59,547 bases of DNA, filler included, from 4 parts of 4 records of this genome joined end to end with filler, not necessarily neighbours in it, one strand, 5' to 3'; counted from the first letter of the whole stretch, positions 2,278 to 7,856 are shown. Notes: generated by a model not told the origin, from the sequence alone. Program-made: numbers and translations.

Positions 2278-3537
2278 CTAATTTGCCACAGTTAGATAAA
2301 TCGCGGTATTTCTATTCTTCTGCTCCACCAAAACATGATGTTTTCTTTGAATTTCTTCAATTGTCAATGGAGTATAATGTCTTACCGTTATTAATTCAAG
2401 ATCATTACTGATATCAATTTCATACTTTTTTTTCAATTCTGTAATTAAATCCTCAATATTTCTTGCAGAACTGTTGGCACAAAATGCAAAACTCACAGCT
2501 GTATTTTGTGTAAAATTCAATTTGATATTGAATTTTGTCACCAATGAAAAGATAAATACCAAATCCTTTTCACCAATAAATGAAAAATTTAAAGGTTTTA
2601 AACTCACCATTACCTGTTTTTTCTTCACAATAAAATTTGGCAACAGTGGTTGAGGTTGTTCTCCTTTAGTAATTAAAGTTCCTTTCTGCGAAGGATCAAT
2701 AAACGATTTTACCCACAGAGGAATTTGTTTTACCTGCAAAGGCTTTATGGTTTTTGGATGAATTACTCTGGCTCCATAATATGACAATTCAATTGCTTCA
2801 TGATAAGGAATCAAATCCAACTTAGTGGTCGTATCAAAATAATCCGGATCTGCATTCAAGATCCCCAAAACATCTTTCCAAATAATCATTTTATCAGCAC
2901 CTAGTAAGTGAGCTAAAATTGCTGCGGTATAATCTGATCCTTCTCGACCTAATGATGTTGTGTTTCCCTCATTATCACTTGCAATAAAACCTTGAGTTAT
3001 ATATAAGGCTGTTGACTTAGAAACAAACTTTGCATTTGCTTTATCTTTCGATGATTCCCAATTGATATTGGCATCAACATAATTGTCATCAGAATCTAAA
3101 CACGTACGAATATCAACCCATTCGTTTGCTTGTCCTGTTTGGTTCAGATATCCCGAAACAATTGTTGTCGACAAAAGTTCTCCAAAACCAATCACCTGAT
3201 CGTATTCAAAATTGAATTTATCAGATGATGGTTTTGAAATTTTGGTTTTAAGCTCGATGAAAAGAGCGTTGATTTCGGTTGCAATTGTTGTAGGAATTTC
3301 TTCGAATAAATCATCAATCACCGAAGTGTGGTTTTGCTCCAGCTGATTGTAAAATTCCCAAACTTTATCGCTTCCCGAAAAATAAGCATCTACAAGTTCC
3401 TCCAACAAATTGGTTGTCGTACCTATTGCCGAAATCACTACTGTTAATGGACGTTTTACCGCACCAATAATATTGCAGATGTTTTTGATAGCAGTAGCAT
3501 CCTTAACCGACGCTCCACCAAATTTGTATATAATCAT
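2278..3537 (-). CDS. lysC: Aspartate kinase (met-operon copy)
   Basis: KFGGASV, SLGREGSDYTA, WKDVLG and HPKT motifs; C-terminal ACT-like region. Confidence 0.92.
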   Translation of the reverse strand: MIIYKFGGASVKDATAIKNICNIIGAVKRPLTVVISAIGTTTNLLEELVDAYFSGSDKVWEFYNQLEQNHTSVIDDLFEEIPTTIATEINALFIELKTKISKPSSDKFNFEYDQVIGFGELLSTTIVSGYLNQTGQANEWVDIRTCLDSDDNYVDANINWESSKDKANAKFVSKSTALYITQGFIASDNEGNTTSLGREGSDYTAAILAHLLGADKMIIWKDVLGILNADPDYFDTTTKLDLIPYHEAIELSYYGARVIHPKTIKPLQVKQIPLWVKSFIDPSQKGTLITKGEQPQPLLPNFIVKKKQVMVSLKPLNFSFIGEKDLVFIFSLVTKFNIKLNFTQNTAVSFAFCANSSARNIEDLITELKKKYEIDISNDLELITVRHYTPLTIEEIQRKHHVLVEQKNRNTAIYLTVAN

Positions 3538-3570: not shown

Positions 3571-4761
3571 CTATTCGTCTCCTAAATATGCAAGGAAGAT
3601 ATCTTTGCCTTTAATTTGGTGTCGAATCTTAATCAAGTCTGAAAGGTTGAGTGTTCCAATTACATAATTGTATTCTTTACCTTTTAATGATTCACTGATA
3701 TCTTTGAAATCGAAAAGTGCCAAATCATTTTCATCAGCATATCTTAAATACACTTCAACTTCCATATTATTAGTATACTCTAATCCACCGTAATATTTCA
3801 GTTTTTTATATTCATATTTATAGTTGTAAGCCAATGCAGTTATATCCGATAACACTGCTGATCCGGTTGGATGCGCTCCTGCTCCTTTGCCATACATGAA
3901 CTGATTATCGTAGAAATTCCCCTGAATCAAAACGCCATTGTAATGGCTCTCTACAGTGTAAGCATGCTCTTCCGGTTTCACGAATTTTGGAGCAACCAAT
4001 AAATTCACATGATTACCATTCACCTTGGTCACCTTACCCAATAATCGAATCTTATATCCCTTTTGAGAAGCCAACTCTATATCCTTTTGAGAGAGATTAG
4101 ATATTCCAAAATTGAAAACCTGATCTGGGTGTACAAACAACCCGAATCCGTGAACCGTTAAAATGATCAGCTTATATAAGGTATCAAATCCATCAACATC
4201 CGAAGTAGGATCGCTCTCGGCAAAACCCAAATCCTGAGCTTGCTTTAGTGCAACATCGTAATCCAAACCTTCATTAAAAATTTTAGTGAGAATGTAATTC
4301 GACGATCCGTTCAAAATTCCACTTACCGATTGCAACAAATCATTATCGTAATACTCTTCCAAATTCCTGATAATTGGAATACTCCCACAAGCTGAAGCTT
4401 CATATACAAACGAAACTTTGTGTTGCCATTGCAATTGTATCAACTCTTCGATATGATAAGCCAACATTTTTTTATTTGCTGAAACCACATGCTTTCCATT
4501 TTGCAATGCAGTTTTCACAATCTGATAGGCTGCATCTGCATCATCAATCAATTCCGCAACAACATTAATTTCAGGATCATTCAAAATATCCTTCGGATCA
4601 TATGTGATCACCTCAGGGTCGATATCTCTAATTTTACCTTCATCTCTTACACACACTTTAACGATAGATGCATCTAATCCTTTACTGTTTTTAAGTACGT
4701 GAGCCAATCCGGATCCTACTACTCCATATCCGAAAACGCCAATTTTAAGTTTATTGCTCAT
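3571..4761 (-). CDS. hom: Homoserine dehydrogenase
   Basis: GYGVVG Rossmann motif, VVSANK, YEASACGSIPII, GILNGSSNYIL, GFAESDPTSDVDG. Confidence 0.95.
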   Translation of the reverse strand: MSNKLKIGVFGYGVVGSGLAHVLKNSKGLDASIVKVCVRDEGKIRDIDPEVITYDPKDILNDPEINVVAELIDDADAAYQIVKTALQNGKHVVSANKKMLAYHIEELIQLQWQHKVSFVYEASACGSIPIIRNLEEYYDNDLLQSVSGILNGSSNYILTKIFNEGLDYDVALKQAQDLGFAESDPTSDVDGFDTLYKLIILTVHGFGLFVHPDQVFNFGISNLSQKDIELASQKGYKIRLLGKVTKVNGNHVNLLVAPKFVKPEEHAYTVESHYNGVLIQGNFYDNQFMYGKGAGAHPTGSAVLSDITALAYNYKYEYKKLKYYGGLEYTNNMEVEVYLRYADENDLALFDFKDISESLKGKEYNYVIGTLNLSDLIKIRHQIKGKDIFLAYLGDE

Positions 4762-5785
4762 TGATTTTGTTTGTGGTTAAAAAATTTTCTAAAACTTGGG
4801 TTAATTGTTCTTGTTCCAAAAGGAATCCGTCATGTCCATATAATGATTTTATTTCGAGAAACTCGGCATTTGGAATGTGATCGGCTAAGTATCGTTGTTC
4901 GTTAATTGGAAAAATCTGATCAGAATTCACTCCAATGACCAATGTTCTCGACTTTATATTATTTAAAGCAGCAACCAAACCATTTCGCTTGCGCCCCAAA
5001 TCATGACTATCCATTATTTTTGACAAATGCCAGTAAGAATAAGCATTGAATCTTCTTGCCAATTTCTCCCCTTGGTATCTTTGATAGGAACTTGCTCTGT
5101 AATCATCAGTCTTATCTTCATCATTCTCTTGTTGCGAATGGTCGTAAGTTGCATAAGTTCTGTAACTCAAAAGTGCAATTGATCTTGCCACGCGCATTCC
5201 ATTCAATCCAGCCTCATCGTTAGATTCTTTCCAGGTAGGATCAACTTCAATGGACATTCTTTGCGATTCGTTGAATGCAATTCCCCAAGGAGAATGCTTG
5301 GCATTGGAAGCCAAAACTACCAAATTATCTAGCTTGCCGTTTAGCAAATAAGCCCACTCTATAGCCTGCATGCCTCCAAGTGAGCTACCAATCATCATGT
5401 GAATGCGATCGATTTTTAAATGTTTTCTTAAAATTTCATGAGCTCCCACCAGGTCGCGCACGGTCAATTGCGGAAAATCATGAAAGTAAGCTTGTCCGTT
5501 CGTAGGTTTTTTAGAAAGTGGTCCAGTGGTTCCGTAGCATGAACCTAAAACATTGGCACATACGATAAAATAGTCCTTAGGATTAAAAAAATCCTTCTCT
5601 CCAAAAAGCCCTGCCCACCAATCGAATACATCCGAATTGGCAGTTAAAGCATGACAAACCCATATCACATTGTTTCGCGAAGGATCGTACTCCCCATAGG
5701 TGTGATAAGCAATGGTCAACTCATCAAGGCATTCGCCCGATTCAAGTTGTAAACCTTCTTTATGGATGTAACAATTGGGATTCAC
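4751..5785 (-). CDS. metX: Homoserine O-acetyltransferase (MetX family)
   Basis: CHALT, GSSLGGM nucleophile elbow, YGHDGFL catalytic His; operon context. Confidence 0.94.
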   Translation of the reverse strand: MNPNCYIHKEGLQLESGECLDELTIAYHTYGEYDPSRNNVIWVCHALTANSDVFDWWAGLFGEKDFFNPKDYFIVCANVLGSCYGTTGPLSKKPTNGQAYFHDFPQLTVRDLVGAHEILRKHLKIDRIHMMIGSSLGGMQAIEWAYLLNGKLDNLVVLASNAKHSPWGIAFNESQRMSIEVDPTWKESNDEAGLNGMRVARSIALLSYRTYATYDHSQQENDEDKTDDYRASSYQRYQGEKLARRFNAYSYWHLSKIMDSHDLGRKRNGLVAALNNIKSRTLVIGVNSDQIFPINEQRYLADHIPNAEFLEIKSLYGHDGFLLEQEQLTQVLENFLTTNKINEQ

Positions 5786-5907: not shown

Positions 5908-7272
<1,365 letters not shown>

Positions 7273-7573
7273 CTATTTGCATGATGCTTAATTTATATCA
7301 TGCAAATATTAGCAACTTAGGATTACATCCTTGATTTAAAAATTTGATTAATTGGTTAGAAGCGAAAGGCTTCTGATTGTCGCAAATTCAGTTCTTATCA
7401 CATTTACAATCGACCCGAATAGTTAGATGGATTCAGATTTGATTGTATCAATACTTATTTCTGAAATACAGAAACAATTGAAATAAATAAGTTTGAATTT
7501 GAGTTCCCTGGTTCGGAGTTATTTTATACGCACCAGCATCTAAAAAATTAGGAAATATTCCAGACAGAATGCG

Positions 7574-7696
7574 TTACTGCATACGCATCATTCGCTGCAT
7601 TCGCATCATAGTGGTAGTTGATGCCAAAGATTGCAACTGAATATTTTGCTCTTGTTGAGCCTGTTTTGCGTGTGTGTGAATTTCTGTCTTCTTCAT
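7574..7696 (-). CDS. Putative Met-rich leader peptide, 40 aa: MKKTEIHTHAKQAQQEQNIQLQSLASTTTMMRMQRMMRMQ
   Basis: Manual translation. ATG lies 7 nt after the riboswitch P1 3' strand; 6 ATG codons fall in the last 11 codons; it sits in the leader of the met operon. Confidence 0.75.
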   Translation of the reverse strand: MKKTEIHTHAKQAQQEQNIQLQSLASTTTMMRMQRMMRMQ

Positions 7697-7703
7697 GATC
7701 TTC

Positions 7704-7817
7704 TAATTTATATTCACCAAATTAAATGGTCAGGATTTGACACCTTTCAGCTTTTGGTTCTGCTGCGGTTGTCAGAAGGTCAACGAGCCTGTTCTCTCAC
7801 TTCTTCTGTATAAATTA
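7704..7817 (-). ncRNA. SAM-I (S-box) riboswitch aptamer
   Basis: Minus strand reads UAAUUUAUA-CAGAA-GAAG-UGAGAGAA-CAGG-CUCGUUGAC-CUUC-UGACAACC...GGUGUCA-AAU-CCUG-ACCA...UGGU-GAA-UAUAAAUUA. P1, kink-turn P2, the CAGG/CCUG pseudoknot, P3 and P4 all pair. It lies upstream of metY. Confidence 0.92.
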
Positions 7818-7856
7818 AAGATATTCTCCTGCGAGATTTACCTTAAATAACAAGAG

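Follow-up and report, generated by a model that had tools for sequence, protein, structure and literature searches.

The metY leader and the genes behind it

This text concerns the leader of metY, a gene of the O-acetylhomoserine/O-acetylserine sulfhydrylase family, in a stretch of DNA of 59,547 bases that we call the window. The closest relative of this metY belongs to an uncultured Marinifilum (98% identity). The leader joins an S-adenosylmethionine (SAM) riboswitch aptamer of the SAM-I type to an open reading frame (ORF) of 40 codons that ends in a cluster of methionine (Met) codons. We lean, with moderate confidence, towards reading it as a two-sensor leader, responsive to SAM through the aptamer and to Met supply through the codon cluster, for metY, metX, hom and an amino-acid-kinase gene. 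An original prediction of two-input control of methionine synthesis had located the element correctly, although the element has to be read on the minus strand. The features of the locus are the following, in the direction of transcription:

7705..7816, minus strand: SAM-I (S-box) aptamer with an all-A/U P1 helix (RF00162, 71.1 bits, E 1.1e-14)
7697..7714, minus strand: leader translation initiation region, positions -18 to -1, overlapping the P1 3' strand (from the sequence)
7574..7696, minus strand: leader ORF, 40 codons plus stop (MKKTEIHTHAKQAQQEQNIQLQSLASTTTMMRMQRMMRMQ)
7577..7609, minus strand: Met-codon cluster MMRMQRMMRMQ, six AUG in 11 codons (from the ORF translation)
7228..7573, minus strand: untranslated spacer from the leader stop to metY, 346 nucleotides (nt) (fold prediction and alignment)
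5908..7227, minus strand: metY, O-acetylhomoserine/O-acetylserine sulfhydrylase family (TIGR01326, 646.9 bits, cut-off 495.1; PF01053)
4751..5785, minus strand: metX-like homoserine O-acetyltransferase gene (top NCBIfam matches are MetX models; PF00561)
3571..4761, minus strand: homoserine dehydrogenase gene, hom (PF00742 and PF03447)
2278..3537, minus strand: amino-acid kinase family gene, the last of the same-strand cluster (PF00696)

The RF00162 match spans model positions 1-108 of 108, comprising the P1-P4 four-way junction, and is the sole Rfam match at gathering level across the window. Its full length and its 71.1 bits, where the gathering score is 44.4, bear out the earlier description of a well-formed aptamer. 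The P1 strands (5' 7816-7809, 3' 7712-7705) consist of A and U only. The distance from P1 to the ATG of the ORF, first given as 7 nt, is 8 nt by the Rfam boundaries (7705 to 7696). The ORF itself was confirmed by the ORF listing as a 40-amino-acid frame ending TTT-MMRMQRMMRMQ, with 6 Met among the last 11 residues. Its product matches no Pfam family, and the threonine triplet before the Met cluster is not conserved, as relatives read ITT, IIT, SSK or STQ at this place.

Conservation of the leader ORF

In each of five Marinifilaceae loci (three Marinifilum, Ancylomarina euxinus and a Marinifilaceae metagenome-assembled genome) the aptamer is present and is followed, after 7-8 nt, by an ORF of 39-41 codons with a Met cluster at its end. 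Scanning metagenomes with a 17-letter motif taken from the conserved block described below returned 119 stretches, of which six were homologous by blastn and the rest chance matches; all six homologous loci have a leader ORF, for example MKTENHNINQVALQEPSLHLQLQSTFTQMMRMQMMMRML. The set of 12 Marinifilaceae-like leaders used below consists of the window, L001-L005 and the six metagenome loci. Conservation of the Met cluster in orthologous leaders, on which the prediction depended, holds throughout this set, since the 39-41-codon ORF and its cluster are present in 12/12 sequences. The N-terminal half diverges, but the frame stays intact through insertions and deletions (a 3-nt gap; a +1 together with a +2 in L003). 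In the genomes of L001, L005 and L002 (G001-G003) one RF00162 match each, the metY leader, was found among the 150 of 226-289 candidates scored.

Outside this family, we collected 80 genome loci encoding metY relatives and found RF00162 upstream of metY in 61 of them. The 61 leaders analysed are the 60 loci with RF00162 at most 700 nt from metY plus the window, and for the chance control the 220 nt following each of the 61 aptamers were shuffled 200 times with dinucleotides preserved. An ATG placed 0-15 nt after the aptamer (mostly 7-10) opens a frame of at least 20 codons in 49 of the 61 leaders (shuffles: mean 5.4, maximum 10), and these 49 adjacent ORFs are 24-51 codons long. An adjacent ORF with at least three cysteine (Cys) plus Met residues in its last 12 is present in 41/61 leaders (shuffles: mean 0.15, maximum 2). 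The ORF and its Cys/Met tail are therefore not a chance product, because the shuffles reach at most 2/61. A test for conserved short Met-rich ORFs in SAM-I leaders of Bacteroidota metY had been suggested, and the collected leaders show them in a broader form, their ends being rich in Cys and Met and not in Met alone.

The enrichment is confined to the tail and to one frame. In the 49 leaders the Cys+Met fraction is 0.43 in the last 12 residues versus 0.03 in the remaining N-terminal part, and the last 12 codons hold 5.14 Cys+Met in the ATG frame versus 1.82 and 0.22 in the other frames. Cys is encoded both by TGT (109 codons) and by TGC (78). No sequence is common to the N-terminal parts, even inside one genus. 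According to the labels of the sequence records, the carriers are Marinifilaceae, Sphingobacteriaceae, Cyclobacteriaceae, Spirosomataceae, Chryseolinea, Chitinophagaceae and Saprospiraceae. Marinifilaceae have Met-only tails; Cys runs predominate elsewhere, and Sphingobacterium tails frequently consist of no more than RMR. Met and Cys as the sensed residues fit the downstream gene, since homocysteine or cysteine is the product of metY-family enzymes (TIGR01326).

The recurrent tails could also mean that the peptide itself acts, either as an arrest peptide that senses a small molecule near the stop codon or as a Met/Cys-rich metal-binding micro-protein. TnaC and SpeFL are nascent arrest peptides of the first kind, sensing tryptophan and ornithine respectively. 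Such a role would suit the position of the cluster, always within a few codons of the stop, and the recurrence of R-M-R and M-R-M patterns in Marinifilaceae and Sphingobacterium; moreover, PMC12360218 treats Rho termination via stop-held ribosomes, under the control of leader ORFs, as established for tnaC, speFL and cruR. However, no motif beyond composition is shared across lineages, the ORF belongs to no Pfam family, and it is placed as a leader would be, between a riboswitch and biosynthetic genes. We consider an active peptide quite improbable.

Three further arrangements were observed. Four metY loci without RF00162 (L012, L034, L043 and L061) carry, ahead of metY, one or two short ORFs rich in Met/Cys, with tails such as MCHMMCCM or CCCMMCMCCCCM, so that the leader peptide apparently exists also as a stand-alone sensor. 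Four Chitinophagales-type loci (L016, L044, L064 and L076) have an aptamer with the usual P1 and a separate Cys-ended ORF of 24-25 codons 325-465 nt further on, just before metY; here the two putative sensors are stacked, not fused. At L010:691-959 a SAM-I aptamer is followed after 17 nt by a 48-codon ORF ending MFMRGMPSMHL, which precedes an aspartokinase-like gene and then metY.

The P1 helix and the start of the leader ORF

Ten genomes carrying some of the metY loci were searched for RF00162, which gave 27 matches of two kinds. Fifteen have an all-A/U P1 (GATTTATAA...ATATAAATT type), and 15/15 of these are accompanied by an adjacent ORF that begins 1-13 nt after the aptamer and is at least 22 codons long; 11 of these ORFs have at least three Cys+Met at the end. 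The remaining 12 have a P1 of the usual CTTATC...GATAAG type, and 0/12 have an adjacent ORF with a Cys/Met-rich end, the nearest case being a 20-codon frame that begins inside the aptamer and has no Cys/Met cluster. The usual-P1 aptamers precede metH-, metF- and metE-like genes, a Cys/Met pyridoxal-phosphate enzyme and a redoxin. The same division is found among metY leaders: the usual P1 is present in 10 of the 12 that lack an adjacent ORF of 20 codons or more, and the other two, both from Spirosoma, have an A/U P1 with short ORFs of 13 and 18 codons. This pairing of P1 type and ORF offers annotation pipelines a simple rule for finding unannotated leader ORFs.

All-A/U P1 aptamers with an adjacent ORF also occur before genes other than metY, at six loci of genomes G009-G011 (L215, L219, L222, L224, L228 and L229). 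The ORF ends in a Cys run at 4/6 of them, has two Cys at L224 and shows no cluster at L229. The genes behind them encode a fatty-acid-hydroxylase family membrane protein, a PhyH-type dioxygenase, a TonB-dependent receptor and three proteins without a Pfam match.

The sequence in front of the leader start codon appears favourable for initiation. In Flavobacterium johnsoniae, according to PMC6847099, adenines at upstream positions of this kind (-3, -6, -12, -13) promote initiation. The window has A at -3, -6, -11, -12 and -13, and its P1 3' strand corresponds to -16 to -9 and so includes the three adenines from -11 to -13. Among the 49 leader starts the frequency of A is 0.69 at -3, 0.78 at -6, 0.67 at -12 and 0.71 at -13, versus 0.35, 0.57, 0.61 and 0.51 at the metY starts of the same loci, and A at +3 occurs in 0.88 of the leaders. 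Judged by Bacteroidia rules, the leader initiation region is thus the stronger of the two on sequence grounds. We read the P1 3' strand as shaped to double as a ribosome landing site, in which case SAM-stabilised P1 and 30S binding would be mutually exclusive. The original prediction that P1 covers the leader initiation region agrees with the geometry and with the co-occurrence of P1 type and ORF; the exclusion of 30S by SAM-bound P1 would follow from them.

Predicted structures around and behind the Met codons

Four elements were recognised at the end of the ORF and behind it:

7579..7604, minus strand: predicted hairpin Hm within the Met/arginine (Arg) codons (RNAalifold consensus, 12 sequences)
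7569..7588, minus strand: hairpin H1, ATGCGT (7588-7583) with ACGCAT (7574-7569) (sequence reading)
7528..7574, minus strand: predicted long hairpin H2 (RNAalifold, 13 pairs)
7517..7533, minus strand: highly conserved block GGTGCGTATAAAANAAC, all specified bases kept in 12/12 sequences

The arms of Hm are 7604-7596 (5') and 7587-7579 (3'), and all 8 of its pairs are kept in at least 11 of the 12 sequences, with no compensatory change. H1 is the small hairpin noticed in the original prediction; it is present as described, its second arm beginning at the last base of the TAA stop. ACGCAT is invariant in the 12 sequences, ATGCGT reads ATGCAA in L003, and the hairpin lies outside the RNAalifold consensus. 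H2 has its 5' arm at 7574-7561, starting from the last base of the stop codon, its 3' arm at 7542-7528, and a loop with a conserved TTTCCY and a T-run. Twelve of its 13 pairs are standard in 12/12 sequences and the basal pair in 11/12, with one-sided changes only, such as G-U to G-C in L003. The block GGTGCGTATAAAANAAC, which matches no Rfam family, overlaps the H2 3' arm and precedes an A-rich single strand.

Hm, H1 and H2 would be mutually exclusive as drawn, because H1 shares bases with the 3' arm of Hm and with the upper 5' arm of H2. The predicted trio would match a classical attenuator in its arrangement of segments (1:2, 2:3 and 3:4). The 3' arm of Hm could alternatively pair with ACGCAT to form H1, and ACGCAT is in turn the top of H2; from this competition, an RNA with a stalled ribosome, one with a terminating ribosome and one without translation should fold differently.

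Positions 7588-7517 are almost invariant in the 12 relatives, in contrast to the divergent ORF body and remaining spacer. This most conserved stretch is kept at the nucleotide level including its non-coding bases, which would also be expected if the ORF were untranslated and its frame and ATG were by-products of RNA constraints in an unusual SAM-I platform. Against that stand the frame of at least 20 codons at a fixed distance in 49/61 leaders versus 5.4 expected, the strong start context (0.88 with A at +3), the insertions and deletions that keep the frame, and the limitation of Cys+Met to the ATG frame. Such a non-coding origin seems to us very improbable.

Another explanation keeps translation and only one sensor: the leader ORF would be a mere expression platform of the SAM-I aptamer in a phylum that makes no use of Shine-Dalgarno sequences, SAM would prevent translation of the leader, lost translation would lead to polarity, and the Met/Arg codons would serve to build Hm and H1. 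The strict link between P1 type and ORF (15/15 versus 0/12) is compatible with it, as are the pairing of the Met/Arg codons with each other and with the stop-codon region and the existence of some leaders with very few Cys/Met codons. However, what is kept in the tails is composition and not sequence (Met, Cys runs, RMR), always in the ATG frame and with both Cys codons, and Cys/Met-rich small ORFs precede metY also in the four aptamer-less loci, which argues for sensors in their own right. We therefore regard the single-sensor explanation as unlikely, and prefer a leader in which the codon cluster is itself a sensor.

Other possible elements were noted in the same region. A frame for MLVRIK (ATG CTG GTG CGT ATA AAA TAA; 7539-7519, minus strand), which falls within the 3' arm of H2 and the conserved block, is present in 11/12 relatives. 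It was rejected as a coding feature, since the stop position varies and L003 has ACG for ATG, and its conservation is probably exerted at the RNA level. A long-range helix could join AGACAGAA (ORF codons 3-5) to TTCTGTCT behind the stop; the motif occurs in 10/12 sequences and also encodes a conserved K-T-E. The TTTCCY of the H2 loop (7555-7550) could pair with a conserved GGGAA (7507-7503) about 45 nt downstream, forming a candidate pseudoknot, and L003 has CCCC with GGGGA at these places.

Regulatory output

The only terminator-like site between 7000 and 8200 is that of the upstream gene (8016-7993), and no Firmicute-type platform was found there behind the aptamer. H2 is followed by ATAAAATAAC, not by a U-tract. 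A strict scan for a hairpin plus T-run from leader to metY gave hits in 11/49 leaders, mostly inside TGT repeats, and a relaxed scan in 8/49. The hit of the relaxed scan in the window is a closing helix that L004, L005 and the Ancylomarina-type sequences lack. Convincing candidates, with a 12-bp stem, a T-run and the 5' arm in Met/His codons, were seen in L054 and L068 only. An output of the classical trp type, with a conserved hairpin and U-tract behind the ORF, is thus not supported.

Thermodynamic modelling gave no support for a Cys/Met tract that masks the metY start: the duplex energy of the tract with the metY start of its own locus is -9.32, versus -9.07 +/- 0.37 with the starts of other loci. 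The modelled unpaired fraction of the metY start is 0.60 in naked RNA, 0.61 with a ribosome on the cluster and 0.60 with a ribosome at the stop, and the modelled opening rises in 12 and falls in 12 of the 49 leaders.

Base composition gives a hint of Rho. The C/G ratio is 1.64 in the N-terminal part of the ORF and 1.59 in the spacer, versus 0.91 in the metY coding sequence; C exceeds G in 45/49, 46/49 and 8/49 leaders, respectively. A C-rich, G-poor leader RNA suits the loading of Rho on untranslated RNA. Precedents exist in enterobacteria, where PMC12360218 names thiM, ribB, mgtA/mgtL, corA, tnaC and speFL as translational riboswitches and leader ORFs that act via Rho. A Rho-dependent output in the spacer, from which ribosomes would shield the RNA, is the output that we tentatively favour, with somewhat less than an even chance.

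Contigs from RNA libraries (four runs of one study) cover 7131-7817 in pieces and show no strand, ends or level. One of them (7336-7659) bridges the end of the ORF and H2, and one other is chimeric with an Ancylomarina-type leader. These contigs place the region in RNA libraries, not among translated sequences; gaps in their cover are uninformative, and DNA carry-over is possible.

A two-sensor model for the leader

Taken together, one mRNA leader probably reads both SAM and the supply of sulfur amino acids. From the geometry and the co-occurrence described above, binding of SAM would close P1 and leave the leader ORF untranslated. At low SAM the leader would be translated, and by analogy with the trp, his and leu leaders, scarcity of charged Met-tRNA would stall ribosomes on the Met cluster. 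An untranslated or quickly vacated leader would be open to early termination by Rho in the long spacer, from which stalled and queued ribosomes would protect the RNA, allowing RNA polymerase to reach metY. Expression of metY would then need low SAM plus low charging of Met-tRNA.

The sensor half of this model is well supported by comparative evidence. Of the two-input interpretation originally proposed, the sensing half is supported, with its conserved cluster and P1 geometry, and the trp-type terminator output is not. For Bacteroidota more broadly, we see an even chance that these leaders represent a distinct class of SAM-I platform, not described so far, which controls metY and other genes over at least four orders and in which an A/U P1 is the landing pad, a Cys/Met tail the second sensor and the output probably Rho-dependent.

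Several points weigh against the model. Translation of the ORF and its response to Met and SAM are predictions, and so are the structures of Hm, H1 and H2: compensatory change is seen in 0/31 predicted pairs in the 12 sequences, a count that is uninformative as to covariation because the bases never vary. Strict and relaxed scans of the 49 leaders gave no conserved intrinsic terminator behind the ORF, and the C-over-G skew is a weak proxy for Rho sites that may be typical of Bacteroidota leaders generally. Eight of the 49 leader ORFs have fewer than three Cys+Met at the end, several Sphingobacterium tails consisting only of RMR, and the six riboswitches of the leader type outside metY precede genes with no obvious link to sulfur. 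Lastly, we know of no precedent for regulatory Met codons.

Comparison with known systems

The leader resembles several known systems in part. Like the S-box leaders of Firmicutes (for example those of Bacillus subtilis met genes), it places an RF00162 aptamer before methionine-pathway genes. The Firmicute expression platform is a terminator/antiterminator pair, whereas here there is no intrinsic terminator and an all-A/U P1 abuts the start of a leader ORF. With the classical attenuators (trpL, hisL, leuL, thrL and pheL) it shares a short ORF, codons for the end product near its end and, as predicted, competing hairpins, and a conserved cluster of codons for the putative regulating amino acid in a short ORF, which marks leader-peptide attenuators, was found here. 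It differs from them in that Met would be sensed, in the missing U-tract terminator and in a leader initiation that would be gated by a riboswitch. The tandem of SAM-I and adenosylcobalamin riboswitches before metE of Bacillus clausii, with its two-input logic, likewise puts two serial sensors on the leader of a methionine gene; here the second would be a translated ORF. We would place the metY leader, from its sequence, among the composites of riboswitch and leader peptide.

The nearest precedent is the mgtA/mgtL leader of Salmonella, in which a ligand-sensing RNA and a sensory short ORF also share one leader. That leader has been interpreted as reading two signals, the speed of mgtL translation reporting the second. 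It combines a Mg2+-sensing RNA with the proline-codon leader ORF mgtL and a Rho-dependent output (PMC12360218). Ligand, residue and phylum differ from those of the metY leader, where P1 moreover overlaps the landing site and a role of Rho is only inferred.

Cys-codon leaders have been described in Actinobacteria (PMC1262725) and, in Rhodobacterales, before cysS (PMC8632094). For mycobacteria, 10.1101/834739 describes leaderless polycysteine short ORFs before cysteine/sulfur genes, on which stalling unmasks a downstream ribosome-binding site. Runs of Cys codons in tiny unannotated ORFs before sulfur genes are common to both cases; the mycobacterial ORFs differ in being leaderless and without a riboswitch, and their unmasking mechanism is unsupported by the modelling here. 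Searches of the open-access literature turned up neither a Met-codon leader nor a SAM-I aptamer combined with a Met/Cys leader peptide, in agreement with the original prediction, whose author was not aware of a described pair of SAM-I and Met-codon attenuator. Nine supplementary files of the Bacteroides thetaiotaomicron transcriptome paper contain no mention of a SAM riboswitch, RF00162, S-box or sulfhydrylase.

If the model is true, attenuation by methionine codons would be seen here for the first time, as would a riboswitch gating a sensory leader peptide instead of the gene, and methionine and cysteine would join the amino acids read by leader peptides. It would constitute a natural two-input gate (SAM; charged Met/Cys-tRNA) on the entry of sulfur into homocysteine, and a case of a Bacteroidota riboswitch that controls a leader ORF via its P1 helix. 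How riboswitches act in Bacteroidota is poorly understood, because initiation there is not based on Shine-Dalgarno sequences and, here, a Firmicute-type terminator platform is missing.

Gene neighbourhood and minor features

The metX-like gene scores under the cut-off of both MetX models (348.1 versus 500; 325 versus 331), and it overlaps the homoserine dehydrogenase gene by 11 nt. The kinase gene at 2278..3537 is probably an aspartokinase. Upstream of the leader, an aspartokinase-like gene (9346-8039, minus strand) ends in its own hairpin and T-run at 8016-7993, which makes it probable that the leader starts a transcription unit of its own. Two aspartokinase-like amino-acid-kinase genes (9346-8039 and 3537-2278) thus flank metY-metX-hom on either side.

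The spacer between the leader stop and metY (7228..7573) is predicted to be structured, with a fold z-score of -5.42 for 7200-7830, and diverges between genera. Its comparison with Rfam gave seven matches, all with E of at least 0.38 and at most 17.9 bits, so a second known RNA family was not found in it. The Bacteroidetes -7 promoter motif is TAnnTTTG. The sequence TATCTTTG at 7864-7857 (minus strand), about 40 nt 5' of the aptamer, fits this motif, has a TTTG 16 nt further upstream, and is a possible leader promoter.

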